Positions 1,266-25,499 of a DNA stretch of 26,417 nucleotides are shown piece after piece. Each line of letters begins with the position of its first letter. Positions within the stretch are counted from its first letter, which is position 1. Source of the stretch: a virus (Duplodnaviria > Caudoviricetes); IMG/VR virus record IMGVR_UViG_3300022666_000338, positions 1 to 26,417 of that record; one strand, given 5' to 3'. The position numbers and the translations under genes are program-made. The notes under the pieces were generated by a model. The model was not told the DNA's origin. It did not search any database and saw only the letters and a program-made list of their open reading frames with translations.

Positions 1266-1271
1266 ACGCCT

Positions 1272-2792: not shown

Positions 2793-2793
2793 A

Positions 2794-3645: not shown

Positions 3646-3646
3646 A

Positions 3647-5971: not shown

Positions 5972-6457
5972 GGGTTAGGAGGTATAAAAAGTCTTCAACG
6001 ACATCGGCGGGCGCGTCCTCAAGATCCCGCCACGTCCAACCGAGTTCGCGGCAGAGCAGGAACGCCTCGATCCTTCGGCTCGCGAGGGCGAGATCGCGCT
6101 CGGATATGAGCAGAGCGGAACCTCGTCCCTCGACAAGGTGCTCTAACGCACTTTTGGGCCGTCATCAGGCTTAGAACGGAATCCGATGGCTTGAAGGGCT
6201 TGATCAAGCAGGTTCTCCCCTTCCTCGGCGGTGAGGTTGTTCTCAAGCGATTCCTTCGTGATCGGGTCCGCGAATGACCAAGCGGTCACGAATTTCGCGA
6301 GCAGGGTCGCCGACCAATCGTTGAGCAAGCTCGGATCCACCGTCTCGCCTTCTTTGGCTTTGGCGTACGGACTTGCTTCCTGCATCCGACGGCGTTCGCC
6401 CCAGCTGAATGAGTCTTTGACTTCCGCCCATTGGGCGTTTGAGAGGTTGATACGCAT
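5955..6457 (-). CDS. Tail assembly chaperone frameshift product (gpGT-like, about 167 aa) via -1 shift at 6152-6158
   Basis: The -1 frame after CCCAAAA is open for 65 codons: SALEHLVEGRGSALLISERDLALASRRIEAFLLCRELGWTWRDLEDAPADVVEDFLYLLTHGHKR*. It overlaps the TMP start and is not in the ORF track. Confidence 0.85.
6143..6457 (-). CDS. Tail assembly chaperone (lambda gpG-like)
   Basis: 104 aa just upstream of the TMP, ending in an in-frame slippery heptamer C CCA AAA. Confidence 0.8.
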   Translation of the reverse strand: MRINLSNAQWAEVKDSFSWGERRRMQEASPYAKAKEGETVDPSLLNDWSATLLAKFVTAWSFADPITKESLENNLTAEEGENLLDQALQAIGFRSKPDDGPKVR

Positions 6458-6507
6458 ATATCTGAAGCATATTCAAAAGACCGCTTTGCAAGCGGTCTTT
6501 GTCCACA
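6458..6507 (-). promoter_or_regulatory. Late-promoter-like motif copy E (upstream of the tail chaperone/TMP block)
   Basis: Minus strand: TGTGGACAA-N27-TATGCT-N8-ATG. Confidence 0.7.
6472..6500 (-). terminator. Intrinsic terminator-like hairpin after the ImmA/membrane cassette
   Basis: Minus strand AAAGACCGCT-TGCAA-AGCGGTCTTT-TGAA: 10-bp perfect stem ending in a T run, just after the stop at 6513. Confidence 0.7.
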
Positions 6508-6512
6508 TGTAA

Positions 6513-6836
6513 TTATTTTCCTTGGGGCTTTATCCCTGATCGTTCATAAACCATGCTAGAGAAAAAGCCAAAAATCCAAGTTGCGGCAGCTCCGCCCATA
6601 GCTTTGACGTCATCAATCTTCCCCAAGGCGCAGAGATAAATGATGAACCCAACAAAGCATATGGCAAGCAAAATTGGCGCCCATACGATAAAGCGTTTCA
6701 AGACCAGTGTCTTCACATCTTCAATACCCTGCTTGCGTTCATGCTCGCGTTCAGTAGCATCGTATTTTAGCCTCTTGTTCAAATCTTGATCATTGACGAA
6801 GCTGCCTTTCCTTGGATTAATCTTCTTGCGCGCCAT
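6513..6836 (-). CDS. Small membrane protein (107 aa, two predicted hydrophobic helices), moron-like
   Basis: Start re-called at MARKKINP (6836) to avoid overlap with the upstream gene. Hydrophobic FIVWAPILLAICFVGFIIYLCAL and GGAAATWIFGFFSSMVY; lower GC. Confidence 0.7.
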   Translation of the reverse strand: MARKKINPRKGSFVNDQDLNKRLKYDATEREHERKQGIEDVKTLVLKRFIVWAPILLAICFVGFIIYLCALGKIDDVKAMGGAAATWIFGFFSSMVYERSGIKPQGK

Positions 6837-6858
6837 ATCATTCGGGTCTGTTATGCAT

Positions 6859-7383
6859 CTAGAAAAGAACTTCGCCGAATAGTGTCTTGGCGCGGATGGT
6901 TGCAGCTGCAGGAGAAACGCCAAACTTTTCCGCCACTTCCTCAATAGCATTAGCGTGTTCAAATGCAATCCGGAACTGTTGGGCTGGCATCAATATTTCC
7001 GCAGCAATTGAATTTGCCTCCCATTCCATTTTTCGTTCAGCTTCTGACATGAGACGGTCAGCACGCTGCAAAACTTTCTCACCATTTACGGGCTGAACGA
7101 TGAAGTCAAGGTGTTCTTCCTCAGCATCAAGAAGGTTTTTGTGTTTTACGAAATGAGCGATCTCGTGAGCGATCGTGAAGCGCTGTCTATTCGCAGGATG
7201 TCGCTCATTGATGTAAATCACGTAATGGTCATCCTCTTTTTTAATCATTCCGGACTGACGATCCTCCAAATCACCCGTAAGATACACGTCTAAATTAAAA
7301 TCCCTCGCCAAAGCAGCCACCGGAAATGGAACTTGCCCGGCGTACTTGTCCAGTTTTTCCTGGAGTGTTTCTGGGATTTTCAT
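6859..7383 (-). CDS. ImmA/IrrE-family Zn metallopeptidase
   Basis: RQRFTIAHEIAH (HExxH), EWEANSIAAEILMP and C-terminal VAEKFGVS. No N-terminal Xre HTH. ATG at 7383 preferred; TTG at 7404 possible. Confidence 0.9.
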   Translation of the reverse strand: MKIPETLQEKLDKYAGQVPFPVAALARDFNLDVYLTGDLEDRQSGMIKKEDDHYVIYINERHPANRQRFTIAHEIAHFVKHKNLLDAEEEHLDFIVQPVNGEKVLQRADRLMSEAERKMEWEANSIAAEILMPAQQFRIAFEHANAIEEVAEKFGVSPAAATIRAKTLFGEVLF

Positions 7384-7442
7384 ACGCTTCAACCTTATCA
7401 GCAAAGCAAGCCTAAATCCAGCATTTTGGCAATAATCCGGGG

Positions 7443-8012
7443 TTAAAAAATTTGGCCAAAATACGAAGCAATTCCTTTTGAGGCGGTCTGCGAATTTGTA
7501 TTCATGTCCACCGCATTTGTCACGAATCCCGCCTCTATCAACAAAGCGAGCGGAGTCGTATCCCGCACCATTCCAATCCTGCCGAATCGACCATCCCTGT
7601 CGTCGAACGCTCCCCCGTTCCAGATTGGAACGCCCGTAGCCTGCGAGTACGCCTGCGAAAGTTTGATAGCTTCCAGGCGTGCAGACTCAGATCCTCCCAT
7701 GAAGCAAGTCGTGACGCCTCGAACGTTGGAATTGGTCGCGGCGTTTCCATGGATCGAGAGCAGCAGGTCGGATGGTTTTGATCTCGCATTGATCCATTTG
7801 ATTCGTTGTACGAGATTATTGTTTGCGGATAGCTCGATAAGGAAATTCGTCGGGACCGGAACGAGCGTCCAACCCTTCTTGACGCAAAGCGCCTGGAGCA
7901 TCGGCTGAAGCGATGCCCAGATCGCGCGATTCCAATCCACCTCAGCCTTGATGCCCACGGCGCCAGGCCAGCGCTTGGAGTGGCCGAGATCGACGAATAG
8001 TTTTCTCTGCAT
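7443..8012 (-). CDS. Endolysin, N-acetylmuramoyl-L-alanine amidase (Amidase_3)
   Basis: Zn/catalytic motifs VDLGH, E(VDWN), LSIHGNA, LIEAGFVTN. Catalytic domain only. Confidence 0.9.
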   Translation of the reverse strand: MQRKLFVDLGHSKRWPGAVGIKAEVDWNRAIWASLQPMLQALCVKKGWTLVPVPTNFLIELSANNNLVQRIKWINARSKPSDLLLSIHGNAATNSNVRGVTTCFMGGSESARLEAIKLSQAYSQATGVPIWNGGAFDDRDGRFGRIGMVRDTTPLALLIEAGFVTNAVDMNTNSQTASKGIASYFGQIF

Positions 8013-8028
8013 ATTGAAACAGACCGCC

Positions 8029-8244
8029 TTAGGAGGCGGTCTTTGCTTCGAGCTCGGCGATTTTGGCGTTCGCTTCTTCGAGCTGTCTGTTCACGGCGCC
8101 GATGACCTGCTGGTCATGTTCTTCGGCGGTCGCGAGTTCGAAACCGTCGTTCAGGTAGCCCTGAAGTTTGGTTTCGAGTGATTCGGCGTCGATGTCGCCG
8201 ATGCGCTCGACGTTCCCGTCCTTCTTGATGAATCGGTAAAGCAT
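8029..8244 (-). CDS. Hypothetical protein (71 aa, C-terminal coiled coil) in the lysis cassette
   Basis: Fills the gap between the holin-like gene and the amidase; QLEEANAKIAELEAK heptads. Confidence 0.7.
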   Translation of the reverse strand: MLYRFIKKDGNVERIGDIDAESLETKLQGYLNDGFELATAEEHDQQVIGAVNRQLEEANAKIAELEAKTAS

Positions 8245-8270
8245 ATGGATGCGGTTAAGGAATAAATGGA

Positions 8271-8513
8271 TTAGTTAGGTGATTTCTGGAGTAGCATGGA
8301 CATGCGTTCGGTCGCTTGGGTGTTGGCCTGCATGTTCTTGTCGATTTCTTTCAGCACTTCCGTCTGCCCCTGGAGGGCTGCAGAAAAACTTTCGATGGCC
8401 GCTCCGTGCTTCTCGAATATTTGCAAGAGCTTCCAACAGATGATTCCGATGACGGCGACTGATCCGAGAGCCGGACCGAGGCTGCCGAGGTCTTTAAGGA
8501 GAGATGGGTCCAT
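8271..8513 (-). CDS. Putative holin (single TM + coiled coil, BhlA-like architecture)
   Basis: N-terminal hydrophobic LGPALGSVAVIGIICWKLL followed by an amphipathic helix; upstream of the amidase. Confidence 0.6.
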   Translation of the reverse strand: MDPSLLKDLGSLGPALGSVAVIGIICWKLLQIFEKHGAAIESFSAALQGQTEVLKEIDKNMQANTQATERMSMLLQKSPN

Positions 8514-8514
8514 A

Positions 8515-8595
8515 TCAGACGGCGGTTAGGATTGAATAAAAGGCGATGATGATTGCCGCCGCCATGATTCCGACCGGAATGAGGCAGCCTCGCAT
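8515..8595 (-). CDS. 26-aa hydrophobic peptide (MRGCLIPVGIMAAAIIIAFYSILTAV)
   Basis: Exactly fills the tail tube-holin gap with TGA-T-ATG junctions on both sides; below the ORF-track cutoff. Confidence 0.6.
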   Translation of the reverse strand: MRGCLIPVGIMAAAIIIAFYSILTAV

Positions 8596-8596
8596 A

Positions 8597-9565
8597 TCAG
8601 TAGCTCGCGACCGTGTTCCGTACGGTGCTCGTAAGCATCGACGAATCCGTCTCCGAGTAATACGCCTTGAATTTCAGCGTCTGGGTGACGATGTCTCCCT
8701 TATTGAATTTGCGCGGAACCTCTTCCAGTATCACCTTGGCGAATTCAAAGCGGATGCGCGGGCTCGATGAGACGCCGATCGTGACGGCGGAATTCAAGAA
8801 ATCGATACGCAGCGCTTGAGCCGTATTGCCAAGCAAGTTGGTGATTTGGGACTGGTCGTCGTAGTTAAGCTCGATTTCCCCTTCCGCTTGGAACTGGCGG
8901 TTCAAAATATCGACGGGGTCGACGCTTCCCAGTGCTCGGTCATCGTCCACGTTCTTCCCGATTTTGACCGTCACCTTGCGCACCTTGATCGGAGTCGCGA
9001 CATTCAATCCGGAAATGCTGGAAGCGACTCGAATATCCCCCATAGTCGGTAGGAAAATGTTCTCCGCGACATACGTGGCGGTACGCACTTGCGATGCGCC
9101 CGTCTTGGAACGGAACCCGAACTTGGCCATGGCGTGCTTATCGAGCTCAACCGCGAATTCGAGATCGGTCAGCATGGAGAGTGCATAGTCCTTGCCGGCG
9201 TTCGGCTCCTTGAGATGGACGGAAAGCGATTGATGCTGGTTGGACTGCTGCACGGAAAACGCGTGGTCATAGACGCCCGTTTCGACGGTCGTGTCTGCTA
9301 CCGATCCAAACAAAGACAACATGAGTAACCCGATGGACTTGTCGCGGACCGGAAGCGTGAAGCTGCCCTCCGCATATTTCTCCACGACTTGAGCGTCGAT
9401 GGAGTTCTCGATGAGATTGCGGGACGATTCGTCGACCGCGTGCGCGACTCGTTCGTCGATGGAAACTTCAGACGGGCGCAACCAGTAGCCTGGAGCGACG
9501 GCCGTGCCTCGGACGGTTTCCTTCCCGACGCCGAGATCGATGCGCGAACCTGTGAATTTGGACAT
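8597..9565 (-). CDS. Major tail (tube) protein
   Basis: 322 aa after the neck genes. N-terminal LGVGKETVRGT, YDHAFSV and EGEIELNY resemble tube proteins. Confidence 0.8.
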   Translation of the reverse strand: MSKFTGSRIDLGVGKETVRGTAVAPGYWLRPSEVSIDERVAHAVDESSRNLIENSIDAQVVEKYAEGSFTLPVRDKSIGLLMLSLFGSVADTTVETGVYDHAFSVQQSNQHQSLSVHLKEPNAGKDYALSMLTDLEFAVELDKHAMAKFGFRSKTGASQVRTATYVAENIFLPTMGDIRVASSISGLNVATPIKVRKVTVKIGKNVDDDRALGSVDPVDILNRQFQAEGEIELNYDDQSQITNLLGNTAQALRIDFLNSAVTIGVSSSPRIRFEFAKVILEEVPRKFNKGDIVTQTLKFKAYYSETDSSMLTSTVRNTVASY

Positions 9566-9568
9566 ATG

Positions 9569-9781
9569 TTATGGAGTTGAGATATCAAAACGGCGGTTGT
9601 ATTCGGCAACCGCCTCTTCGAATGAATCGGCGACGATGGTCGTGGGCGGACGCCCGCCTTCCGCGCTGAAATAAAATTCCTGCGCGCTAACTCGCGCTTC
9701 ATTTTGGATGGCGAGCCTGCGCTCCTCGCTCTTCGAACGGGGTGCGGACGCAAACGCCTTGTTTTCGGCTTTTTCGATCAT
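9569..9781 (-). CDS. Hypothetical protein (70 aa)
   Basis: Tiles between the tail terminator-like gene and the tube gene; starts 8 nt after motif D. Confidence 0.7.
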   Translation of the reverse strand: MIEKAENKAFASAPRSKSEERRLAIQNEARVSAQEFYFSAEGGRPPTTIVADSFEEAVAEYNRRFDISTP

Positions 9782-9831
9782 ACGGATGAAGCGTATCCAT
9801 CCGCCGACCTGCGAAGCCGAAGCTATCCACA
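9782..9831 (-). promoter_or_regulatory. Late-promoter-like motif copy D (upstream of the tail tube block)
   Basis: Minus strand: TGTGGATAG-N27-TACGCT-N8-ATG. Confidence 0.72.
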
Positions 9832-9832
9832 G

Positions 9833-10270
9833 CTAGGAATTCCCCTGCACTTTCCGGCACTTGAGCGTGACGACTGAAACGTAGTGCGGTTTGCCTCTCC
9901 ACTCGATGACGCCTGACCGCGAGAGCGCGGGATACACGTCGCCGTCGCATACGCCTCCGAGCGTGCGATCATGGGCGAATTGATAGATGAGGTCGTCGAT
10001 GACCGAATCCAGAGACTTCTCCGCCGCCGACGTGCCCGCGTTGTCCATTTCGGCGTACAGCAAAATGTCGAATTGGTATTCGATCAAATCCTCTTGGTTC
10101 GTGAAGTACGAACCTTCGGACGGCGCTCTGCGAAGTTCGGCGACGGGATAGCTCGCGATATCGAGCTTCAGCTGGTCTTGTTCGCCGTCATAAACCTCGC
10201 CCAAAACGCCTGCGGTCTTGCGGGCGTCGAGTTTCGCTTTAAGTGCTGAACGGATGGATACGAGCGACAT
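9833..10270 (-). CDS. Tail terminator / tail completion-like protein
   Basis: 145 aa, between the gp10-like gene and the tube gene; SYPVAEL and DRTLGG motifs. Confidence 0.6.
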   Translation of the reverse strand: MSLVSIRSALKAKLDARKTAGVLGEVYDGEQDQLKLDIASYPVAELRRAPSEGSYFTNQEDLIEYQFDILLYAEMDNAGTSAAEKSLDSVIDDLIYQFAHDRTLGGVCDGDVYPALSRSGVIEWRGKPHYVSVVTLKCRKVQGNS

Positions 10271-10271
10271 A

Positions 10272-10658
10272 TTAAAATGCTGGGACGCGCATAGTTTCCA
10301 CGATCTTCTGCGCGGCTTCGTCGAAGCGTTTGTTGATGAGCGGTTCGGACGCCTGGGCGAGCTTCTCCATGAACTTGCGAGGCTTGATGTACCGCGTGCC
10401 TTGGTCCACGTAAATCGCGTATTCGACCGTTGGACCGACGGCGCGCCAGAGGTTTCCGCGAACGATTCCTTCCTTGAACGATTGCGACATGCGGGTCGTG
10501 CGGTACGGGACGATACCGCGATGCGGCAATGCGTAATTCAAAACGATGTCGACCGAACGGTCGAGCGCCTCGTCGATGCATTCGAGGGACATGCGCGGAT
10601 ATCTCGCGACGGCCAGCCTCAGATCGTCGAGATTACGGATGCGGATCGTGATAGGCAT
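10272..10658 (-). CDS. HK97 gp10-like neck protein
   Basis: VPYRTTRMSQS and VEYAIYVDQGTRYIKPRKFM motif; start re-called at MPITIRI (TGA-T-ATG junction). Confidence 0.8.
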   Translation of the reverse strand: MPITIRIRNLDDLRLAVARYPRMSLECIDEALDRSVDIVLNYALPHRGIVPYRTTRMSQSFKEGIVRGNLWRAVGPTVEYAIYVDQGTRYIKPRKFMEKLAQASEPLINKRFDEAAQKIVETMRVPAF

Positions 10659-10659
10659 A

Positions 10660-11277
10660 TCAACCGAGATAGACGCGTCGATAACGGTCGAGCGAAAGCT
10701 GTTCCTCGGGCTCGAGCGTCTCCATCCACATCGCCATGGCCTCTCCGGCCTGTTCGCGGCTTTTGCCGACGCTTTCGCGCTTTTTGAAGGCTTTGATGGC
10801 CAGCCTTTCGCAGAGATCGGACAAATCGAACGGCAACGTGTGCTTCGTCGCGTCCGTGTCATGGGAAAAATCGATTTTGTAACCGGCCGTATATCCGACT
10901 TGGATATTGTTTGTCCCTGCGGGTACGCCTCCGTAGATGCGGATGAGTCCGGAAGATCCGTCTCCTACGAGTTCGAAGTCCGTGGGTAGGAAATCCGTCC
11001 ATGAGGGAGCCGACGGGACGCCTGCGCGATATTGCAGGCTCGTAAGCGCGGTGACGGGTGCCTGCTTCAGCATAAGCATCCGTGCGCCTTCGGATTCGAC
11101 CAAATAGACTTCGTTGGAATAAGCGGTCTCCTTGAAACGCCGTCCGCAATACGACTCGATGAGATCCGTGGACGCGTTAATCAGGCGCTCCAAGAGCGAA
11201 TCAAAACCCGAACTCGTGAGTCCGAGCCGGTCTTTGACCCTCTGGAGCGAGGTGAGCGCGTATGCGGTCGTGGCCAT
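10660..11277 (-). CDS. Head-tail connector (gp6-like adaptor)
   Basis: TSLQRVKDRLG, DSLLERLINASTDLIESYCGRRF, YTAGY, LPFDL, LDRYRR. Confidence 0.85.
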   Translation of the reverse strand: MATTAYALTSLQRVKDRLGLTSSGFDSLLERLINASTDLIESYCGRRFKETAYSNEVYLVESEGARMLMLKQAPVTALTSLQYRAGVPSAPSWTDFLPTDFELVGDGSSGLIRIYGGVPAGTNNIQVGYTAGYKIDFSHDTDATKHTLPFDLSDLCERLAIKAFKKRESVGKSREQAGEAMAMWMETLEPEEQLSLDRYRRVYLG

Positions 11278-11302
11278 AGCAGTATTCTAAACGATGCGGG
11301 AC

Positions 11303-11331
11303 TGTCGGGGAGCATGCTCGACTCCCCGACA
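11303..11331. other. GC-rich intergenic hairpin after the capsid/decoration genes
   Basis: TGTCGGGGAG-N9-CTCCCCGACA perfect 10-bp stem; no clear U tract. Confidence 0.6.
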
Positions 11332-11344
11332 AAGGCCGCCCCGT

Positions 11345-11761
11345 CTAGACCACGGCGTCCGGCACGATGGCCGGATTCTGTGCCGCGCTTCCGAGGTTGA
11401 ACAACCCAGCGAGGTCGATCGATGGAGTCGTTCCCGCGGCCGTCAGCACAAGGCGCACGTAGCGCTTGCGGCTGCCGGTTCCGAGGCCGTTTACGCCGAT
11501 CGTCTTGAGTTGGCCTGATTCGGTGATCGTCACCGATGCGCCGGCGACGTCGGCCATGTCCGACCCATCCGATTCGTCTCCTTCTTGGAGCTTCACGGCG
11601 TAGGTTTCGTCCGTGCTTGAAGTGTCGATCGTGCCAGCCGCGATGACGGCTTGCAGGTTGTCGAATCCCATGGTGTCCGCGACCGTTCCATCCGTGCTTG
11701 CGGTGAGCGTAGCCGGACCGAGCGATGCGAGGACGTTGATGTTTTCTGCCACTGTGTTCAT
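11345..11761 (-). CDS. Capsid decoration/cement-like protein (Bbp16-like)
   Basis: 138 aa beta-rich protein after the capsid gene, with VKLQEGD and KRYVRL motifs. Confidence 0.6.
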   Translation of the reverse strand: MNTVAENINVLASLGPATLTASTDGTVADTMGFDNLQAVIAAGTIDTSSTDETYAVKLQEGDESDGSDMADVAGASVTITESGQLKTIGVNGLGTGSRKRYVRLVLTAAGTTPSIDLAGLFNLGSAAQNPAIVPDAVV

Positions 11762-11937
11762 AGGTGTGGTTTGAGTGAATGAGGTTTGGGTGCGCGCTTT
11801 ATTTTCGGCGTCCCTTCTTTCGCGAGATACTCCGAACCGTAGGCGAGCGCCTCCTCGTCCGTGAGTTCAACCGTCTCCCCCGCTTCCTTGCGGTCGCCGA
11901 GGACGATGATCGGCCTCAAAACTTTGAAGGCGCTCAT
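11758..11937 (-). CDS. Small head-module protein (59 aa; MSAFKVLRPIIVLGDRKEAGETVELTDEEALAYG...)
   Basis: Fills the capsid-decoration gap, with ATGA overlap to the next gene. GETVELTDEEA-type small proteins commonly follow capsid genes. Missed by the ORF track. Confidence 0.75.
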   Translation of the reverse strand: MSAFKVLRPIIVLGDRKEAGETVELTDEEALAYGSEYLAKEGTPKIKRAPKPHSLKPHL

Positions 11938-11941
11938 ATGG

Positions 11942-13129
11942 TTAGGCGCTTGCCGTCTTGATGGCGGTAAGGGCTTGCGGGAGCGAGATCACGGCAGCAT
12001 GGCGGTTACCCATGACCATGCCGATCTGGCGGGACAAGGCGACTTCCTTGCCTCCGAACGTGCCGCTCGTGAAGCGGTCCATTTCCATTTCGCCCTTCAT
12101 GCCGAGTCCGACGGCCTTGAGCGATCCGAACACGCCGAAGCGGGTTCCGGACGCAGAGTCGCTGAATTTCGGCAGGTGGCGGACTGTGTAGACCGGGAAT
12201 CCGAGGATGGAACCTGCGGGCTTCGGCCCGCCGTTCGACGGGTTCACTGAAAGCGTTTGCGGGTTCAAGCCTGCGAGCTGCAAGACGTAGAAACCTGCGT
12301 CGTCTTTCTGCGCGCGGAGTTTCGCCCAGACCGTGCGGCTGAAATAAAAGGCAGCCGAGTCGAGGGTGGATTCTTCCACGCTCGCGATCACGTCGGACGA
12401 ATCGTCGATGACCTTGTACTTGTCGAATCCGGTATTGCCGGACGACATCGTGTACGTGTTGACTTCCTTGCTCGGGAGAATGCCGACGAACGGATGGCCG
12501 GTCCCCACGAACACTTGCTTGTCGATCATGTTTGCCAAAGCTTCGGCGGCCAATGCCATGAGCCAATCGGCAACTGCTGGCGTCGCTTCGGCCAAGAGAT
12601 CCTTGCCCAAAACGAATGCCAGTTGCCAGCTCTTGGCGATGAGCCGGGCGGTCTTGAACGTGATGCCCGTGACGTTTCCGACGGCATCGACGCCAAGATA
12701 TTCGCCTTCGAGGAACGAGCCTCCGTAGGCTGGAATATCGAGTTCGTCGCCCTTCATTTCCCAACGCGCGCACTGCGAGATGGCGACGCCGACGGTCGCG
12801 GAGATGCGCAAGATGGCGTTCGCCACTTCGGTCGGAACGAGGTATCCGCCGCGAGAGTCCTGATCGCCGATCAATGCCTCGCCGGATTTCGTCTGCAACA
12901 CCACCGTCTTCACGAATTTCGCGAATTCGGTTTTCTGCGCGTCAGACAAGCCCGTCTTGTCATGACCCAAAAGGATACGTTCGAGCTTCAATTGCTCCAC
13001 GGCTTCGCGCACCATTCCGGCGCGTTCGTCGCCGATGAGCGCCTTCACTTTCTCGTGGAGGGCATTGTCGAGATGGCCCTTGATGTCTTCCGCGAGTTCG
13101 GTTTTGAACTGTTCGAGTTCTTTCAACAT
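11942..13129 (-). CDS. Major capsid protein, HK97 fold
   Basis: GGYLVPTEVANAI, DKQVFVGTG, LRAQKDDAGFY, ILGFPVYT, FGSL. Start re-called at MLKELEQF. Confidence 0.95.
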   Translation of the reverse strand: MLKELEQFKTELAEDIKGHLDNALHEKVKALIGDERAGMVREAVEQLKLERILLGHDKTGLSDAQKTEFAKFVKTVVLQTKSGEALIGDQDSRGGYLVPTEVANAILRISATVGVAISQCARWEMKGDELDIPAYGGSFLEGEYLGVDAVGNVTGITFKTARLIAKSWQLAFVLGKDLLAEATPAVADWLMALAAEALANMIDKQVFVGTGHPFVGILPSKEVNTYTMSSGNTGFDKYKVIDDSSDVIASVEESTLDSAAFYFSRTVWAKLRAQKDDAGFYVLQLAGLNPQTLSVNPSNGGPKPAGSILGFPVYTVRHLPKFSDSASGTRFGVFGSLKAVGLGMKGEMEMDRFTSGTFGGKEVALSRQIGMVMGNRHAAVISLPQALTAIKTASA

Positions 13130-13134
13130 AGAGA

Positions 13135-13953
13135 TTACTTTTTGATGAATAATTTGCTCTTTGCGAGAGCTTCCGAGGTTGCCGTGTTCACGGCACGCAA
13201 GACCTGACGTTGGAGAAGCCATTGCTTGAAGACTTCTTCGTCAGACCCTTCGTCACTCGACCTTTGTTTCGGGGCGCTCCCATCCGGCGCGTCTTTCCCC
13301 TCGGTACCCTGGTCTCCCGCTCCGCTTAGGAGCTGTTCCAGAGCACCGCTCGCTTGTTCCAATAGGTTGATGGCATTTTCAATCTGCGTCCGCGTATCCG
13401 CCGAGATCGTCCGGCCTGTTTTGGCCTCGACGGGTGCAGGCTCGGGATCAGCAGGCTTCTCTTCCGGTTTTTCCGATTTTCCGATGAACGCTTCGACGGC
13501 TTTCGCCTCGGCGTCACCGATATCCTTCACGGAAAGCGTCCGCGCATTCGGATTGCAGGGAACGGCAACGAAACTGATCTCGAGCAATTCATTCTTCATG
13601 GTTCCGTCCTGCGCCTGATTCCGCATGAAGCCGACGGACACCGTGTCGAGGAAACCTTGCTCGACCATCTCTCTCGTTTCACGCGCGGCATCGGTGATGT
13701 CGTGGAATAAAGGCTCGAATAATAGCTGTCGATTTTCCGCGCGGATGTTTTCCGCGAGTCCGACGATGGACTTTACGGAATAGTCATGATCGATGAGCAA
13801 TCGCGGTGACTTCTGGAAGTTCAAAAGATCCCAGCTCGATACCGGAATCGCTTCGCCGGAGCGGTCGATCGTTTCGTCGCTGGCAACGATCGTCACCCGC
13901 CCATCGGCGGCTTTCGTGACGGTTGCCTTGAGTTGTAGTTGTTCGGTCTGCAT
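13135..13953 (-). CDS. HK97-family prohead protease
   Basis: ASDETIDRSGE, LLIDHD, VSVGF, ELLEISFVAVPCNPNA. Confidence 0.93.
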   Translation of the reverse strand: MQTEQLQLKATVTKAADGRVTIVASDETIDRSGEAIPVSSWDLLNFQKSPRLLIDHDYSVKSIVGLAENIRAENRQLLFEPLFHDITDAARETREMVEQGFLDTVSVGFMRNQAQDGTMKNELLEISFVAVPCNPNARTLSVKDIGDAEAKAVEAFIGKSEKPEEKPADPEPAPVEAKTGRTISADTRTQIENAINLLEQASGALEQLLSGAGDQGTEGKDAPDGSAPKQRSSDEGSDEEVFKQWLLQRQVLRAVNTATSEALAKSKLFIKK

Positions 13954-14005
13954 ACCTTGGTGAAGCGTATCGGGTTAATGACGCGCATTGGTTTCTTTAT
14001 CCACA
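13954..14005 (-). promoter_or_regulatory. Late-promoter-like motif copy C (upstream of protease/capsid) containing a perfect DnaA box
   Basis: Minus strand: TGTGGATAA-N27-TACGCT-N10-ATG. TTATCCACA on the + strand at 13997-14005. Confidence 0.75.
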
Positions 14006-14006
14006 A

Positions 14007-16109
14007 TCAATCTTGAAGTTCTTCTACCTGAGGCACGACTTGGCATCGGCAATTCGGATGGAGCGCTCCGCCGGTCACGTCCGCGTAGTCCACGGGCATA
14101 GTTCCGCCGTCCGATCCCTGCACCACGTCGCCCTTGTCGTAAAAGTTTTCGTCAATGCCCACGACGGTTCCTTGGAGCGGGGCGCAGAATTCGCATACGA
14201 GTTCGTCGGCAGCCGTGTACCAAACGAGTTTCTGCACGCCTGACTGGCGATATGCTTCTCGTCCGGCCATATTGGCAACGCGGAACGCTTCGGTTTTCGC
14301 CACGCGTTCAGCCCTGACGTCGGATGAGAATTCGCCGATATCGCTGATGCGGTTCTTGAGCTTGTCGATCCCCTCGCCTGCATCGAGTCCATCCCTGAGG
14401 GCGTCCCTGAGCAGTCGAGTCGTTTCTTCCTGGTACGATTCGGCCATGATTCCGACGGCATCGTTCACGGCCTGATGCACGCGGGCAGTCGTATCGTCGA
14501 AAGCTCCACCGATGAGATCGGCAGATGCCCTGCCCTCGCTTCGATATAGATCATCGAAAATGGGACGGACGGCGCTTACGATGATGCGGACTTCGGAACG
14601 CGGATCAAGCAAAGTCGCGAGATCGAATGCCTTGGACTGCTCCTCGAGGCTTGCCGATGCGCGTTCAACCATACCTTGTGCATAGTCCGCCATCGTCTTC
14701 CGGATCCGTTTCTCGTATGGAGCGACGCGCTTCACGAACGCGCGCCATCTCGCCTCTTCCTGCATGAGCTTGATGATTTTTCCAAAACGGCTGAAACCTT
14801 CAGCTGCTTTGGATGCAACGGCTTTGACGGCAACCTCAACCTTCACCTCCACATCGTTCATGTTCTTGGCGGCCGTAATCGCCAGGTATGCCGAATGCGG
14901 AGCGAGCGATTTGTTCGGTTGAGATTTCGGGGCTCCGACGGGCGTCTGGGTAAATGAAGCCATGACCGAATCGCCGTTCTCGATAGGCTCGAGTCCCAGT
15001 TCGTCGCGGACTTCATTGACGCTCTCATATGGAGCTCCGCCCAACGCCGCGACGCGTTTCTTGATTGCAAGGTCCTCGTCCTCCGGAACTACGTTGTCGA
15101 ATTCGACGATCAGATCCTTGCCGAATCGCGGGATAAGCAAAACGTTCAAAAATGTTGCAATGCGCCGTAACCGCGGCATGACCGTGCGGAGCGCATAGAT
15201 GTAATTCGTTGCTTCAGCAGTTGCGCGGTTCAGGTTCTCGCCAGCTCCAAGTCCGAGTACGACATGAGGCGTTCTCAGTCCGGACAAAATGTCGTCTCTG
15301 GACCATTTAAGCTGTTCCACGAAATCCATCTCCTTCTGGCTCCAGCCCATCTTGTCCGGCTCGACGCCGTCCGGAAGGATTGCGACTTTGTGCGCGTTCT
15401 CGGTTCCACGATACCGATCTTCGAACTGCATGCGGATGGGATCCATCTGCTCCCGCGTTTTGAACTTGGATTTGAGGATGAGGTCGGGACGCGCGCTGTT
15501 ACGGAAAAAAGCCCGATTCCATTGGCGGGCGGATTGGTCGAGATCGACCGAGTCCGACATGGCTTGCACGGCTCCAAAACCGAGAATCGGATCGTCGGGA
15601 TTGGATTCGCGAATATGCAGGATCTGGTAAGGCTGAAAAATGTATTCGCGCGATTTATGCCGGTACTTGTATGCGACGATGGCCTCGGGAAAAGAATCGG
15701 TTCGTACAAGAGTGACGTTTTGTGCCTTTAGGAAGTACAGCACCTTTGGTTTCGAGTGCGGCGAATCGGCTCCGTCCATGTAGACGTAGGCGTTGCCGTA
15801 GAAGTCGAGCGACATGCTGACCATTTCGAGCAGTTCGGAATGCGTAGAAATGGGATTCGGTTTGTGCAACAGGTCGAGGGCGGGATGGGAATCGAGCTCG
15901 CTCCACGATCCGTCGGCTTTGACGCGATACAGGCGGAACGTGGAATATCCCACGGTCTCGCCGAGAAGTTTCGCAGCCTTGAATTGCCAGCCGAACGCGA
16001 CGTTGGATGCGCCGTTCAGCCAAGACGAAAACGCGTGGCCGACTTCGGCGATGCTTTTCCCGCTGCGGTAGAAGCGCCACGTTTCTTTCACGCGATCGAA
16101 GAAGTTCAT
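14007..16109 (-). CDS. HK97-family portal protein fused to a Mu gpF/SPP1 gp7-like head morphogenesis domain
   Basis: Portal motifs HPALDLLHKPNP, GNAYVY, FFRNSARP, SVNEVRDELGLEP. C-terminal RAERVAKTE, WYTAADELVCEFC, LHPNCRC. Start re-called at MNFFDRVK. Confidence 0.92.
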   Translation of the reverse strand: MNFFDRVKETWRFYRSGKSIAEVGHAFSSWLNGASNVAFGWQFKAAKLLGETVGYSTFRLYRVKADGSWSELDSHPALDLLHKPNPISTHSELLEMVSMSLDFYGNAYVYMDGADSPHSKPKVLYFLKAQNVTLVRTDSFPEAIVAYKYRHKSREYIFQPYQILHIRESNPDDPILGFGAVQAMSDSVDLDQSARQWNRAFFRNSARPDLILKSKFKTREQMDPIRMQFEDRYRGTENAHKVAILPDGVEPDKMGWSQKEMDFVEQLKWSRDDILSGLRTPHVVLGLGAGENLNRATAEATNYIYALRTVMPRLRRIATFLNVLLIPRFGKDLIVEFDNVVPEDEDLAIKKRVAALGGAPYESVNEVRDELGLEPIENGDSVMASFTQTPVGAPKSQPNKSLAPHSAYLAITAAKNMNDVEVKVEVAVKAVASKAAEGFSRFGKIIKLMQEEARWRAFVKRVAPYEKRIRKTMADYAQGMVERASASLEEQSKAFDLATLLDPRSEVRIIVSAVRPIFDDLYRSEGRASADLIGGAFDDTTARVHQAVNDAVGIMAESYQEETTRLLRDALRDGLDAGEGIDKLKNRISDIGEFSSDVRAERVAKTEAFRVANMAGREAYRQSGVQKLVWYTAADELVCEFCAPLQGTVVGIDENFYDKGDVVQGSDGGTMPVDYADVTGGALHPNCRCQVVPQVEELQD

Positions 16110-16157
16110 GGCGCAAGCATCGCAAAAACGCGAACGCCAAAGCCCGCTATATCCACA
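16110..16157 (-). promoter_or_regulatory. Late-promoter-like motif copy B (upstream of portal); box lies within the last codons of terL
   Basis: Minus strand: TGTGGATAT-N27-GATGCT-N6-ATG. Confidence 0.62.
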
Positions 16158-17517
16158 GCATCTCTGGAATCCAGTTTGCCCGCTTCGCGTAATGGCAGAT
16201 CGCAAGCGCGTCTGCGCGGTCAGGCGAACGCAATCCCCGCTTCTTCGCATCGTCCTTCGATTCGATCTTGATTTGTCCCTTGGAAGTCATCGCGTATTTG
16301 ATTGACGCAAGCTGGTTCACGAGCACCGGATCATTCGGAATCGAGATGCGGTTCTTTTCGAAATCCTCGCGCAGACACCAGAATATTTCTGCTTTGAGAT
16401 TCGCGAACCGCTCCGAATCTTCGGCGGCCGATCCGAAATTGACGGGGACGACCGATACGCCCTGCTCTCGCAGCATGTCGGTGACGCCTCCGCCCACGCC
16501 CGTGTCGTCGACTGCGACGAATTCCGCGCCGGAATCCTTGGCGGCAAGTACGAGCCGGCCAGCCGTCTCGTTCGTCGGCCTCCGGTTGACGCACTCGACC
16601 AGCTCATACGTGTTGCCAATGGATTTGAAGATGACTGTCTCGTCTTCGCCGAAACGCGCAACGTCGCATCCGACGCTCTTTCGATCGTCGCCAGGCACTT
16701 CCGCATTTGCCGCCCTTTCGACCCATGAGAGCGGAATCAGCGTGTCCGAACCTTCGACTGGAAACTGTCCGAGCACCTTGGCTTGGAACAGCGGGCTTGT
16801 TTCACCCCATTCCGCCTTTCGCTCTTCAACCCAATCAGCCGAAACGGCGCCGGGAATTACGATTTCACCCGTTGTAACGTTCGGGTGATCAAGGCATGAG
16901 ATTTCGATCTTGTGCCAGATCGGGCTTTTGAAGGTGTCGTAGAACGGACCGGACGGGCTCGCAGGGTTTCCAATCGCCACAATGCGGTTGTTTGCCCCCG
17001 TGGCGAGAGATGTCGCGCCTGTCCACGTTTCTGGCGGTACGCCCGCCGCTTCATCAAGAATGACCAATAAATTGGGCGAATGAAAACCCTGAAGTTTCGT
17101 GGAACCGAAATCGCGCTGGTCGACGCCTTCGCGGGTCGAGATACCGAGCGCAAAACAATCCTCGGAAACCTTCCATTGGGTCGTAAGCAATTCGCCCCCG
17201 AGCGGGATACGAGACGATCGGTACGCTGCCGCAATCTCTCCCCAAAGCACTTTTTCGACCTGCGTCCACGTCGGAGCGGTCGTCACCACCTTGGATGGTT
17301 TGAACACGGTCAAAAACCAGATAGCAAGTCGTGCCATGAGCCATGACTTCCCTACCCCGTGTCCCGATCGGACGGTGACTCGTTTGTGGCCGACCACGGA
17401 CTCTGCGACTTCGATTTGCTTCTCCCAGAGCACCGCTTCAGGCCAGCATAATTTCACGAATCCTACGGGGTCGCGCTGGAGCCTAAGCAGGATTCCTTCG
17501 GTTCGCCGACTTGCCAT
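16147..17517 (-). CDS. terL: Terminase large subunit
   Basis: Walker A VRSGHGVGKS, Walker B LVILDEA, IGNP coupling motif, nuclease GCDVARFG and SPDRADAL. Confidence 0.95.
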   Translation of the reverse strand: MASRRTEGILLRLQRDPVGFVKLCWPEAVLWEKQIEVAESVVGHKRVTVRSGHGVGKSWLMARLAIWFLTVFKPSKVVTTAPTWTQVEKVLWGEIAAAYRSSRIPLGGELLTTQWKVSEDCFALGISTREGVDQRDFGSTKLQGFHSPNLLVILDEAAGVPPETWTGATSLATGANNRIVAIGNPASPSGPFYDTFKSPIWHKIEISCLDHPNVTTGEIVIPGAVSADWVEERKAEWGETSPLFQAKVLGQFPVEGSDTLIPLSWVERAANAEVPGDDRKSVGCDVARFGEDETVIFKSIGNTYELVECVNRRPTNETAGRLVLAAKDSGAEFVAVDDTGVGGGVTDMLREQGVSVVPVNFGSAAEDSERFANLKAEIFWCLREDFEKNRISIPNDPVLVNQLASIKYAMTSKGQIKIESKDDAKKRGLRSPDRADALAICHYAKRANWIPEMLWI

Positions 17518-17860
17518 AGAGCGAGTAGATGAAGTCCTGCAAATTATCGATGCTCACACCTCCAGACATTTCGACGGAAGTCAGCGCCTTGCCTGCCGAT
17601 TGGTCGAGCAAGTATTTGACCATGTCGGGATTCGGTTCGCGTTCGTAAACCTTGGAACGCTTGCCGTCCTTGCCTGGAACGTAGACCACGATGCCTTTGG
17701 CGAGATCGATGGCGGAATCCATTATCGGTTGGAATTCCTCTTCGATGCGATCAAGCATCTTCTGCCGCATCTGGTTCCGCTTGATGGTTTCCGGATTCAA
17801 AGTCCCGAGCGGTCTCCCGCCTAATTTCCCGTTTTCCCTGCTGGACTTCGATTTCGGCAT
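17483..17860 (-). CDS. terS: Terminase small subunit (putative)
   Basis: Overlaps the terL start; basic N-terminus NGKLGGRPLG and LLDQSAGKA...VEMSG pattern. Confidence 0.7.
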   Translation of the reverse strand: MPKSKSSRENGKLGGRPLGTLNPETIKRNQMRQKMLDRIEEEFQPIMDSAIDLAKGIVVYVPGKDGKRSKVYEREPNPDMVKYLLDQSAGKALTSVEMSGGVSIDNLQDFIYSLYGKSANRRNPA

Positions 17861-17876
17861 ACGAAAACCTAAAAAC

Positions 17877-19109
17877 CTAAAACTTGGCTAACTTTACAGC
17901 CTGCTTTCCGGTGAATTTCTCCCATCTGTCGACGATAACGTCGCAATAGGCCGGATCCATTTCGATCATGTAGCACCGCCGTTCGACCTGCTCTGCTGCG
18001 ATAAGCGTGGAACCTGAACCGCCAAAGCAATCGAGCACGATTCCGTCCTGCGGAGCGCTGTTCAGGATGGCTTTGGCGCAGAGCCGGACCGGTTTCATGG
18101 TCGGATGTTCCGGTGATTTGGTCGGACGGTCGAAAAACCAAACATCGCCTTGCTTCCGTCCGCCGTACCACGCATGACGCGTCCATCCATACAGAATTGG
18201 TAGTGCTTCGACGTCCTCGTTCGGATCGTCAAGTTTCGCGTCCTGCTCTTGGGATAGACCATGCATGATCGGTTCGGATTGGTGCTGGTAGTCGGAACCC
18301 CCGAGCGTAAATCGCTGCTTCGCCCAGACGATATATCCCTGCCAATGTCCGCCGGCATCCGTGAACGCCTGCCAGAGTGAATGCAGTTCTCCGTATGACA
18401 TGCAGACGTAGAACGCGCCCGAAACATGGGCGACAAGATTGGCCATCACCTTGCGAAGGAACGCGACGAATTCATCCCGTGGCATTTCGTCGTTGGCGAT
18501 TTTCTTCCGGCGCTTCCCAGACCCGCCGACGTAGCCCATGTTGTACGGCGGATCCGTAAAACACATGCTGGCTTTCGCGCCTTCGAGCAAACGGTCAAAA
18601 CAGTCCGGATTGGTCGAGTCTCCGCACAAAAGCCTATGAACACCAAGTTGATACACGTCTCCCGTCTTGGTTTTGGGGTTCTCTGGCACGATCGGGTCGT
18701 AGTCGTCCTCGACCGGCTCCTTGGCGAGGCGGTTCAACGCTTCGGTTATTTCGTCTTCGTCGAAACCAGAGAGCCTGCGCGACTCGGCATCCAGCTCGTC
18801 CAGGAGTCTGGCGAGCATGTCCATGTCCCATTCGCCCGAGATGCGGTTGAGCGCGAGGTTCAGCGCCTTCTCCCGATCCTTGGGAATGTCGACGCGGATG
18901 CACGGCACTTCGGCCATGCCGAGGCGTTCTGCCGCCTTGATGCGTTGGTGCCCGCCGATGACCGTCCCGTCCGCGTTTATGATGACCGGATCCACGAAAC
19001 CGAACGCGCGGATGGACTCCGTGAGTTTCGAGAGTTCGCGTTCGCTGATGGAACGCGGATTGTATTCCGCCGGTTTGAGCGCGGTGATTGTTATTTGTTC
19101 GTATTGCAT
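17877..19109 (-). CDS. ParB-like domain + N6-A/N4-C DNA methyltransferase (beta class)
   Basis: YNPR, FGFVDPVII, IGGHQR (ParB); FTDPPY, HPTMKP, LDCFGGSGST. Start re-called at MQYEQI. Confidence 0.92.
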   Translation of the reverse strand: MQYEQITITALKPAEYNPRSISERELSKLTESIRAFGFVDPVIINADGTVIGGHQRIKAAERLGMAEVPCIRVDIPKDREKALNLALNRISGEWDMDMLARLLDELDAESRRLSGFDEDEITEALNRLAKEPVEDDYDPIVPENPKTKTGDVYQLGVHRLLCGDSTNPDCFDRLLEGAKASMCFTDPPYNMGYVGGSGKRRKKIANDEMPRDEFVAFLRKVMANLVAHVSGAFYVCMSYGELHSLWQAFTDAGGHWQGYIVWAKQRFTLGGSDYQHQSEPIMHGLSQEQDAKLDDPNEDVEALPILYGWTRHAWYGGRKQGDVWFFDRPTKSPEHPTMKPVRLCAKAILNSAPQDGIVLDCFGGSGSTLIAAEQVERRCYMIEMDPAYCDVIVDRWEKFTGKQAVKLAKF

Positions 19110-20164
19110 AGGATTGTTCTTGCGACATGTTCGACCACTCGGCTTACGACTCCGTTCCCGCACATCTTGTACCGCTGGGTGTCGCTCATTTCGATTTCGT
19201 TCCCCTTTTCGTCGATTCCCCATCTCGTCCATTCGTCCGGCCATGACATGAGGCGTTCGCATTCGAGCGGAGTGAGGCGTCTGACTCGGATACCGTCCGT
19301 GACGCCTGATACTTCGGCGGTGCGGTGGCTGTATCCCTTGGCATATCTGGCTTGGATCGTCCGTGCGGCAGACGTGATCTTGGGATTTTCCGTGCTGAGA
19401 TCGATGAAGGCGATTCCTCCCGTATTGGCTCCATCGATTGTGAAGGCGTAGTCTCCCTCGATTTTCTTCTGGTTGCGGTTCAGGTATTTGAGCGGGCAAC
19501 GGACGGCGTAACAGCCGGTCTTAGCACCTATGCCTCCGCCGTTTGCCTTGAGTGTCCGTGCTACGCCGTGTTCGGAATAGACGCGCTCTGCTTGAGCGAC
19601 CCGAGACGTGATTTCGCTAAGATTCGCTTCAGTACCTTGAGGCTCAAAAAATACTTCTCGTGTACGTTCGCCTCGAGTACCGATGATAAAGACGCGCTCG
19701 CGGTTTTGAGGGACGCCGAAGTCTCTTGCGTTGAGAATCTGCCATGAGAGAGCGTAGCCCTCTTCGGCCAGCGCATTGAGAATGAAGGCGAAGTCTCTTC
19801 CTCCATTCGATGACAAAGCGCCTTTAACGTTTTCCCAGATGAAATGGCGTGGCTTTTTCTCGTGCAAGGCGCGGACGTACTCCGCGAACAGTCCTGATCG
19901 CGACCCTTCGAGTCCCGCTCGCTTTCCAGCGATGGACAGGTCTTGGCATGGGCTTCCGCCGACAAGAAGGTCAAAGTCGGGAACGTCTTTCCAGTTGATT
20001 GATTGGATGTCTCCATAATTTTTGATTGTGGGGAATTTTCGCTTGAGCACCGCTGATGCGTATTTATCTATCTCGCTCATGCCGACGCATTGCGATCGAG
20101 GCATGCCCGCTGAAATGCCGAGTTCGAATCCGCCCACTCCGGTAAAAAGGGAAAAATACTTCAT
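19091..20164 (-). CDS. dcm: C5-cytosine DNA methyltransferase
   Basis: Motifs SLFTGVGG, GGSPCQ, ENV, QNRERVF, RRLTPLECERL, YKMCGNGV. Confidence 0.95.
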   Translation of the reverse strand: MKYFSLFTGVGGFELGISAGMPRSQCVGMSEIDKYASAVLKRKFPTIKNYGDIQSINWKDVPDFDLLVGGSPCQDLSIAGKRAGLEGSRSGLFAEYVRALHEKKPRHFIWENVKGALSSNGGRDFAFILNALAEEGYALSWQILNARDFGVPQNRERVFIIGTRGERTREVFFEPQGTEANLSEITSRVAQAERVYSEHGVARTLKANGGGIGAKTGCYAVRCPLKYLNRNQKKIEGDYAFTIDGANTGGIAFIDLSTENPKITSAARTIQARYAKGYSHRTAEVSGVTDGIRVRRLTPLECERLMSWPDEWTRWGIDEKGNEIEMSDTQRYKMCGNGVVSRVVEHVARTILCNTNK

Positions 20165-20490
20165 ACGGCCTTAATGCCGAGGGCGTCGGCGACGCTTTCC
20201 CATGAACGCGCGAGCACATAGGTACCTCCGGCGGATTCGATTCGTCTCTGCCAAAGCTTCTGCTCGTCTCGTTGCCGTCCTTCCGGCGATTTGACCTCGA
20301 TGCCGATGAACGAGCCGTTAATCACGCAGACGATGTCGGGCATGCCTACGTTGAAGGCGTCTGATTTTCGAAAACCGATGATGGCCTTCCCCTTCCTGAT
20401 CGGAATTGGCGCGGGCTGGCAACGGAACGCGAGAATGTTCCGGTAGCGAAGGTTCGCGAGTATGGCGTATTGGATGTCTGATTCCCTCAT
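20161..20490 (-). CDS. VRR-NUC domain nuclease (putative Holliday junction resolvase)
   Basis: MRESDIQ start, GMPDIV, IEVKSPEGRQRDEQ, AGGTYVLARS. The start at 20490 is supported by motif A. Confidence 0.88.
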   Translation of the reverse strand: MRESDIQYAILANLRYRNILAFRCQPAPIPIRKGKAIIGFRKSDAFNVGMPDIVCVINGSFIGIEVKSPEGRQRDEQKLWQRRIESAGGTYVLARSWESVADALGIKAV

Positions 20491-20539
20491 GCGTACAAGC
20501 ATAGGCGCGCGAAGGCTTGAAAATGCGCACTTATCCACG
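20491..20539 (-). promoter_or_regulatory. Promoter-like motif copy A (upstream of the VRR-NUC/methylase/terminase block)
   Basis: Minus strand: CGTGGATAA-N27-TATGCT-N7-ATG. Confidence 0.7.
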
Positions 20540-20929
20540 TTTTCCGACGGTCGGAGCGAACAGAGGCGGTGGTTTGTCGACGTACACGATGACGGCCTTT
20601 GGAATTTCGTGTCCTCGATCTACGAGGGCAGACAACCGTCCCGCAAGCCTGTCCGCCGTGCAAAGCCACCGATCCGCGGAGAGTTCGAGCTCTTGGTCTT
20701 TGCAGGAAAGGTAGCGTTCGTACGCTTCGTTCAATGAGCAGATGAGGCTTTCTTCTTTGCTTGGGATGTCCTCGACCTGCCAGATCCGCCTCTCTGCCCA
20801 TTTCGCAAGCTCGGCCATCGAGACATGAATGGAGCCGCGCCTTCGCCGGAGCAGGTATGCATGGCCGTCCGAACCCATGATGAGGATGGAAAGCACGTCG
20901 ACCTTGAGTAAGTTGCGTTGGGCTATCAT
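20531..20929 (-). CDS. Hypothetical protein (132 aa)
   Basis: Tiles the operon; no motif recognised. Confidence 0.6.
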   Translation of the reverse strand: MIAQRNLLKVDVLSILIMGSDGHAYLLRRRRGSIHVSMAELAKWAERRIWQVEDIPSKEESLICSLNEAYERYLSCKDQELELSADRWLCTADRLAGRLSALVDRGHEIPKAVIVYVDKPPPLFAPTVGKRG

Positions 20930-25467: not shown

Positions 25468-25499
25468 AGATATTTGTCCTCTAAGAATGAATTGAATAA

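Follow-up and report, generated by a model that had tools for sequence, protein, structure and literature searches.

Phage late activators such as P2 Ogr, Mu C/Mor and RinA/ArpU are phage-encoded proteins that bind their own sites and act at promoters lacking a -35 element. The DNA described here, IMG/VR virus record IMGVR_UViG_3300022666_000338, positions 1 to 26,417 (the whole 26,417-nt stretch is referred to as the window), covers the greater part of a siphovirus-type prophage, which lies on contig C1 of the host genome G000 (1.41 Mb, 100% complete), and on the minus strand of the window there are five elements in which a DnaA box is followed after exactly 27 nt (N27) by a -10-like hexamer and, a few nucleotides later, by the ATG of a gene heading a block. 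Like the sites of Ogr, Mu C/Mor and RinA/ArpU, these place a putative activator site upstream of a weak core at a fixed spacing and recur at several predicted late promoters; those activators bind sites of their own, however, whereas here the site is the host DnaA word and no such activator family was matched. The reading that we favour, and consider somewhat probable on the strength of sequence comparisons, is that the five elements are sigma70 late promoters activated by host DnaA at a predicted box position of -48 to -40.

DnaA as a transcription factor and DnaA boxes at phage promoters are already known as a theme. PMC8203912 describes activation of nrdAB, and an action of DnaA also on dnaA and gua in E. 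coli and on ftsZ, gcrA and mipZ in Caulobacter. Such DnaA-regulated bacterial promoters have a DnaA box upstream of a sigma70-type promoter, as is the case here (the host examples described below include lexA, dnaB, ftsA and nrdR), but the prophage differs in using single boxes at one exact spacing, at -35-less and probably near-leaderless promoters, for a whole virion programme, and in a host whose RNA polymerase alpha subunit lacks its C-terminal domain (alpha-CTD). Phage lambda, whose transcription DnaA stimulates through RpoB (cited in PMC8203912 and PMC3985674), is a further case of a phage using host DnaA as an activator with a proposed direct RNA polymerase contact, but the lambda transcription described there is early and replication-linked, whereas the prophage boxes head five late blocks at a fixed position. 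GafY, a DnaA domain-IV homologue, activates gene transfer agent genes (PMC9632790); it acts together with IHF at a distant upstream position and interacts with RpoD (PMC11150451). The Caulobacter protein GafY (HdaB), like GafA in Rhodobacter, is thus a case of a DnaA domain-IV fold that switches on virion-like genes and contacts RpoD; GafY, however, is a dedicated stand-alone protein working far upstream with IHF and GafZ, and no such domain IV was found in the prophage, its genome or ten related genomes. The phylum of the host appears to be Patescibacteria, because close relatives of the prophage carry that label, and no paper on DnaA boxes, leaderless transcription, alpha-CTD loss or late promoters in Patescibacteria was found in a literature search whose coverage mostly excludes subscription papers and bioRxiv supplements.

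Organization of the five sites

All window genes named by Pfam and PHROGs lie on the minus strand. They are Sak4, an exonuclease, a replication protein, VRR-NUC, two methyltransferases, terminase, portal, protease, an HK97-type capsid, connectors, tail tube, amidase, tape measure, Dit, fibre and tail tip. The five box-N27-hexamer sites are all present where the original prediction had placed them, and together with the associated open reading frames (ORFs) are as follows.

189..20490, minus strand: gene blocks headed by the five sites, from VRR-NUC to the tail tip and including the lysis genes (Pfam and PHROGs scans)
20498..20539, minus strand: site 1, CGTGGATAA-N27-TATGCT (box 20531-20539, hexamer 20498-20503), ATG 7 nt after the hexamer; block of VRR-NUC, two DNA methyltransferases, a terS-like ORF and terL; the stop codon of a 132-aa ORF lies inside the box
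16116..16157, minus strand: site 2, TGTGGATAT-N27-GATGCT (box 16149-16157, hexamer 16116-16121), ATG 6 nt after the hexamer; block starting with the portal gene; the box overlaps the last terL codons
13964..14005, minus strand: site 3, perfect TGTGGATAA-N27-TACGCT (box 13997-14005, hexamer 13964-13969), ATG 10 nt after the hexamer; block of prohead protease, major capsid and head-tail connector genes
9790..9831, minus strand: site 4, TGTGGATAG-N27-TACGCT (box 9823-9831, hexamer 9790-9795), ATG 8 nt after the hexamer; block of a 70-aa ORF, tail tube, holin-like ORF and amidase
6466..6507, minus strand: site 5, TGTGGACAA-N27-TATGCT (box 6499-6507, hexamer 6466-6471), ATG 8 nt after the hexamer; block of a putative tail chaperone, tape measure, Dit, fibre and tail tip

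There are several informative features of these sites. First, one box is a perfect TTATCCACA and the other four carry single mismatches, as had been claimed, and each site thus has near its putative promoter the 9-mer matching TTATNCACA that marks DnaA-regulated promoters. Second, boxes by themselves are no more frequent in the window than chance allows (5 against a shuffle mean of 2.97, with at least 5 in 15/100 shuffles) and the box and hexamer pair is above chance (5 found, 0/100 shuffles), the pair pattern having been fitted to these same sites; the independent tests of this pattern are its conservation in relatives and a whole-genome search, in which [TG]A[CT]GCT at N27 after GTGGAYA occurs at 5/247 sites, all five of them in the prophage. 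Third, the distances from the box to the upstream stop codon and from the hexamer to the ATG vary, and that from box to hexamer is constant at 27. Two boxes cover the last codons of the 132-aa ORF and terL, and two others begin 1 nt past the upstream stop.

The spacers were also compared by folding, which is unusual only at site 5 (z -3.7, compared with -0.25 to -1.04 for the other four), and an RNA structure shared among the spacers was rejected. The site 5 spacer forms a near-perfect hairpin (6473-6497), and hairpins were seen by eye in the same spacer of several relatives. This hairpin is likely the terminator of upstream cargo, and a terminator may be nested inside the site 5 promoter. A low-GC cargo segment between the amidase and chaperone genes (6513-7386) encodes an IrrE/ImmA-like metallopeptidase (PF06114) and a small membrane protein, both absent from close relatives as far as seen.

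Conservation in related phages

Capsid alignment gave 206 loci, 146 of them non-redundant including the window; the source of the N27 signal is a 14-locus clade (capsid identity at least 57%). On the coding strand of the 145 other loci, TAnnnT stands at the N27 offset after 56 of 531 GTGGA[CT][AT] boxes, against 1-14 at other offsets and a single case at N27 on the opposite strand. Clade sites were defined by gene position and not by motif (the protease position of L097 was set by hand), and N27 is kept at the portal in 14/14 loci, at the protease/capsid site in 14/14 with a perfect TGTGGATAA in every one, at the tail-tube block in 13/13, at the chaperone in all nine loci with an orthologue, and at VRR-NUC in eight of the nine with that gene, L097 having a perfect box at N23/26. 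A sixth N27 site precedes the amidase cassette in 6/9 clade loci, the window being without it, and G403 and G404 have extra N27 sites ahead of the chaperone and other tail genes.

The original prediction described a fixed spacing with unrelated spacers, and this extends to the relatives: N27 is conserved, and identity between sub-lineages is 0.82-1.0 in the box, 0.68-0.88 in the hexamer and 0.27-0.41 (27-41%) in the spacer, the site 3 spacer being at 0.27. Within the box the GTGGA part is invariant in phage sites and the TAA side drifts. All of the position-defined clade sites have xAxxxT at N27, a weak -10-like hexamer. No TTGACA-like word is present at 16-18 nt as it would be in a canonical -35/-10 promoter, and at most one of six bases matches TTGACA at the -35 position in 42/65 sites, compared with 16% of shuffles; the -35 position therefore fits TTGACA worse than shuffled spacers do, in agreement with the claim that there is no shared -35. 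The T that follows each hexamer in the window fared less well, being kept in only 27/55 distinct sites of the relatives.

The other 132 loci have no forward N27 peak, and many have a reversed box (TTATCCACA) ahead of portal, protease or tube genes, with a broad spacing (38 matches at N27-33 from 83 boxes); no DnaA domain-IV gene was found in such sister phages, whose reversed box stands ahead of these same genes. One sister lineage (L214, L197, L195/L081, L036, L079, L077, L084, L163 and L166) has reversed boxes before the protease (N20-37), before the tube block (at N28-29, inside tail-terminator codons) and before the tube, and several of its loci sit in 5-9 Mb genomes labelled Alphaproteobacteria or Acidobacteriota (putative hosts). 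In many non-clade relatives (L023, L104, L025, L034, L150, L189, L031, L058, L205 and others) there is a conserved leader before the portal gene, which ends in a strong hairpin and T run directly before the ATG, 3' of the reversed DnaA box promoter; it is a candidate attenuator or antitermination element, and had no Rfam match in the three tested. A major capsid protein (MCP) search of 401 phylum genomes gave matches in G000 and G190 only, and the distant prophage of G190 (MCP 31%) has no N27 sites. Two clade records are labelled Gammaproteobacteria, but these labels look mistaken: the genomes are 1.0-1.3 Mb and their RpoA is 72-82% identical to Patescibacteria host RpoA.

Host RNA polymerase and promoter geometry

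The G000 RpoA is a 237-aa open frame, and PF03118 is found nowhere in G000. In all 10 clade hosts checked RpoA is short, missing the C-terminal domain, with frames of 237-262 aa (ORFs of 232-235 aa in G402 and G403); the proteins at G000:C1:708717-709409 (L275), L261:9783-10478 and L263:10406-11110 end at about 232-237 aa. The alpha-CTD is present in 55/61 phylum genomes, and in the hosts of other relatives RpoA frames are 320-469 aa in 12/15. Because host RpoA is without this domain, an activator at -48 to -40 cannot use alpha-CTD here; sigma70 region 4.2 of the host looks intact. If DnaA is the activator, a molecule on the single box (at about -48 to -40) would take the place of the absent -35 element, and would contact sigma70 region 4 or the beta flap directly, there being no alpha-CTD linker available. 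Such a direct contact would explain the zero tolerance in spacing, and alpha-CTD loss may thus account for the rigid N27, as judged from a single host lineage.

Transcription from these promoters would start 0-4 nt before the ATG, giving near-leaderless mRNAs. TANNNT in G000 peaks 12-18 nt before start codons (782 lead genes, by a crude gene call) and the phage hexamers lie at 12-16; the sites also have the hexamer with A2 and T6, 6-12 nt before the start codon, that is seen at host genes. The leaderless or nearly leaderless starts of the original prediction are therefore supported, as predicted starts, by a -10-to-start distance that is the host norm.

DnaA boxes on host and host-phylum chromosomes

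The fixed N27 pattern was searched over 301 phylum genomes and matched in 60, mostly once and with many control matches, and this search was therefore replaced by a variable-gap test, in which a perfect box 14-43 nt (N14..43) before TATAAT was sought in 181 phylum genomes with backward controls counted by hand. TGTGGATAA-N14..43-TATAAT occurs 134 times forward versus 19 backward controls, and the reversed box before TATAAT 140 times versus 19, with a forward mode at N27-28 (26/134) and a reversed mode at N31-33 (34/140). The perfect box in the phage orientation is thus most often at the spacing used by the phage. A 10.5-bp periodicity is apparent in the pooled data (p 0.0001 and 0.003), and the contrast of N26-29 with N31-34 by orientation, which was set in the first 101 genomes (p 0.002), recurs in 80 new ones (p 0.005). 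Fifth-base box variants (46 versus 24 controls in 71 genomes) follow the same phase, with p 0.03-0.07 and with 9 at N26-29 and 1 at N31-34. Host promoters in the phylum thus have the same box with a DnaA-like tolerance at base 5, albeit as a modest signal.

Forty host sites were hand-picked near the modes; 35 have a downstream ORF, and 30 of these ORFs were scanned. They include lexA four times, dnaB, ftsA, nrdR (N21), a pilin, PadR and enzymes, 13 are without a family, and no virion gene family was found among the 30. The lexA sites, from three Patescibacteria families, comprise three forward at N28 (L221, L228 and L235) and one reversed at N32 (L247). In G000 itself, boxes are at no fixed place upstream of lead genes, and 18/21 perfect boxes are outside called genes, where the calls leave 24% uncovered and miss some real genes. 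G000 boxes were also seen near lexA (by tblastn, one mismatch; G000:C3:119616) and, by eye, near recA, mraZ and clpB. Three perfect DnaA boxes are clustered at G000:C4:41726-41890, about 9 kb from dnaA, and the dnaA-dnaN interval (C4:30860-31190) has only degenerate boxes by eye; either could be oriC.

Candidate readers of the box

A single PF08299 match, the host DnaA, was found in G000 at E<=10, and above the cut-off there is one per genome in G401-G410 (five clade and five sister-lineage genomes) and none in a prophage. In G401-G405 the match lies in a full-length frame; in G406 it is in a 233-aa frame on a different contig from the prophage. Stand-alone DnaA domain IV was found in 0/5 virus records, most of them partial, and host DnaA domain IV had no phmmer match in the six frames of the 146 loci, so that an element-encoded stand-alone domain IV of the GafY/GafA type was not detected in these sets. 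Host DnaA has a canonical domain IV: aligned to E. coli 1j1v and 8btg it keeps the RDHTT motif, Pro and Arg. The original prediction noted no phage sigma, Q, RinA or Ogr gene, and this is borne out by scans in which Q, RinA/ArpU, Ogr, Mor and phage sigma families had no match among 38 window ORFs (Pfam and PHROGs) or 12 (NCBIfam). An alternative host sigma factor (there are four further PF04542 proteins) was set aside as a reader because 27 nt exceeds the reach of one sigma.

The geometry, the absence of a -35, the conserved spacing, the lack of a recognisable phage reader and the helical grid of boxes at host promoters are in keeping with probable binding and activation by host DnaA, which the original prediction had suggested alongside a factor mimicking its specificity. 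DnaA alone, however, cannot explain both lateness and silence in the lysogen, and a second input is needed. Late timing would come from a phage early protein, or from a change in free or ATP-bound DnaA after induction. The 132-aa ORF is the best phage candidate for such an input, and a second ORF, which is present also in the motif-less L205 and was not found in G403, is a weaker one.

20531..20929, minus strand: orphan ORF of 132 aa that immediately precedes site 1, a candidate timing co-factor
22603..22890, minus strand: conserved 95-aa early ORF, modelled as a long helical hairpin, weaker candidate

Several observations weigh against activation by host DnaA. First, DnaA is present in the lysogen and its action alone would make the late genes constitutive, hence the need for a second input, and neither the early end of the prophage nor that of its relatives in G401-G404 showed a CI/Cro-like gene. 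The early genes of the phages in G402 and G403 begin directly after ribosomal protein genes. Second, several clade sites change the second T of TTATCCACA (to TGTGGATTA), a base that is important for E. coli DnaA, the fifth base is invariant in the phage sites, and a two-mismatch TGTGGATTT/G is found ahead of the amidase cassette. Third, the N27 architecture is unused in the host's own chromosome outside the prophage, and the phylum-wide counts come from non-independent kin, with both words being intergenic and the backward control not correcting for this. Without five congeneric genomes the periodicity weakens, to p of about 0.05 for the forward boxes and 0.02-0.04 for the reversed ones, and in the replicate the reversed boxes by themselves fall short of significance (p 0.14-0.19). 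Fourth, a perfect TATAAT was the selection criterion for the host sites, many of which also possess a good -35, and their control could therefore be by repression and not activation. Fifth, the clade and the hosts with short RpoA are one lineage, and their match is therefore a single event; L205 is without the motif although its host RpoA frame is 247 aa. Finally, the reversed tube-block box of the sister phages lies in coding sequence at N28-29, off the reversed mode of the hosts.

Alternative explanations

The alternative that survives best, although we think it unlikely, is that host DnaA represses these promoters, blocking RNA polymerase just upstream of the -35 region until titration by replicating phage DNA (5-6 boxes per copy) or a drop in DnaA frees the late genes. 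Repression would account for both the silent lysogen and the late timing with no regulator from the phage, in keeping with the lack of a visible CI/Cro-like gene and with the good -35 and -10 words of many host N27-28 promoters; dnaA, gua and rpoH are known targets of DnaA repression (PMC8203912). However, the phage cores have no -35 and a weak -10, so there is little to repress, and a single-base spacing in one orientation would seldom be needed for repression. Moreover, the strongest box is at the capsid promoter, where the need for output is greatest.

Next, and also improbable, is that a phage protein reads the box, the 132-aa orphan being a new late activator whose site converged on the DnaA word. 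Its gene stands directly before the first boxed promoter, homologues are present in 13/14 clade loci (the 14th does not reach the region) and only 11 representatives are known among 1.84 billion proteins. The phage sites keep GTGGA as the TAA side drifts, and phage-encoded readers of DnaA-like boxes exist, GafY being one (PMC9632790). No homologues were found in the 132 other loci, but only 34 of these extend more than 6 kb before the portal, and the homologues in L182, L130 and L183 match weakly (E about 0.005 if they are excluded from the profile). The predicted structure (predicted local distance difference test 81, predicted template modelling score 0.51) has a beta-hairpin, a helix and a helical hairpin, with no helix-turn-helix or DnaA domain-IV fold; Foldseek returned nothing at E<=0.001 and VIA-align only generic helical hairpins, residues 1-52 being barely covered, and neither this ORF nor a 99-aa ORF had a usable match in Atlas searches. 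Also against this, the protein diverges to about 20% identity, yet the best box stays a perfect DnaA consensus, and hosts and sister phages use the box without the protein.

We regard it as no less doubtful that the box serves as an upstream promoter element recognised by the alpha-CTD-less RNA polymerase itself, or by some other host protein whose specificity is DnaA-box-like. The box is at the usual position of the alpha-CTD, the domain that this host lacks, boxes in hosts often precede genes outside replication (pilin, glycosyltransferases and phosphofructokinase), and the degenerate boxes of the host dnaA-dnaN interval are likewise in its favour. On the other hand, the word is the exact DnaA consensus, it is used in both orientations with a half-turn shift and with the fifth-base tolerance of DnaA, and phased boxes are spread over many families, with most phylum genomes keeping the alpha-CTD. 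The apparently intact sigma70 region 4.2 also argues against it, as does the distance of 27 nt, which is too long for a sigma -35/-10 pair.

That there is no promoter at all, the words reflecting gene-end coding constraint, translational coupling or RNA structure, would suit the boxes that overlap or abut upstream gene ends and the one spacer that is a hairpin, but is very improbable given variable stop and ATG distances around a fixed 27, the lack of a shared RNA fold or Rfam family in the window, and the extra N27 sites before other tail genes in G403 and G404.

Other features of the prophage

About 8 kb past the tail end of the prophage there is a gene that by eye looks integrase-like, together with two tRNA-Arg genes. 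No repeat of at least 14 bp fits both prophage ends as attachment (att) sites, and the boundaries are thus approximate. Between the tail tip and the tRNA-Arg pair is cargo (L001:10742-18476; G000:C1 about 489700-497500) with genes that by eye are a type I restriction-modification system, a T5orf172-like ORF, a small helix-turn-helix ORF and a peptidase-like ORF. An Rfam scan of six sources found two tRNAs only, and no family in the window.

Ahead of sak4 (window 25470-25830) is a structured leader of 300 nt, which contains nested inverted repeats and is nearly identical in G401; a 13-bp word within it recurs before the integrase-like gene at C1:488978. This leader, which has no Rfam match, possibly provides RNA-based immunity. 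The early-end regions in L261:11730-11913 and L263:12230-12740 are likewise without a CI/Cro-like gene. Six RNA runs had shares of 0.06-0.09, and the four examined consist of contigs of relatives, mostly at less than 95% identity, with early and late genes alike; being contigs only, these data have no power to show starts or to rank expression.

Implications for Patescibacteria and their phages

Activation by host DnaA could be part of a wider pattern, which we put forward tentatively and regard as rather doubtful: that Patescibacteria use DnaA phylum-wide as a promoter factor on a helical grid, and that the prophages of the alpha-CTD-less lineage run their whole virion programme on it without a conventional repressor or activator, with DnaA docking on sigma70 or the beta flap and the orphan protein licensing the switch. 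The holin-like and amidase genes of the window lie downstream of the tube-block site, and lysis could thereby be coupled to the replication state of the host. If host DnaA does activate these promoters, the late switch of a temperate phage would be in the hands of the protein that initiates host replication, and the making of virions would be tied to the replication state of an obligate symbiont. The sites would also provide a first testable promoter grammar for Patescibacteria, and a rigid, single-box, -35-less promoter on an alpha-CTD-less polymerase would be a clean system for learning how DnaA contacts RNA polymerase.

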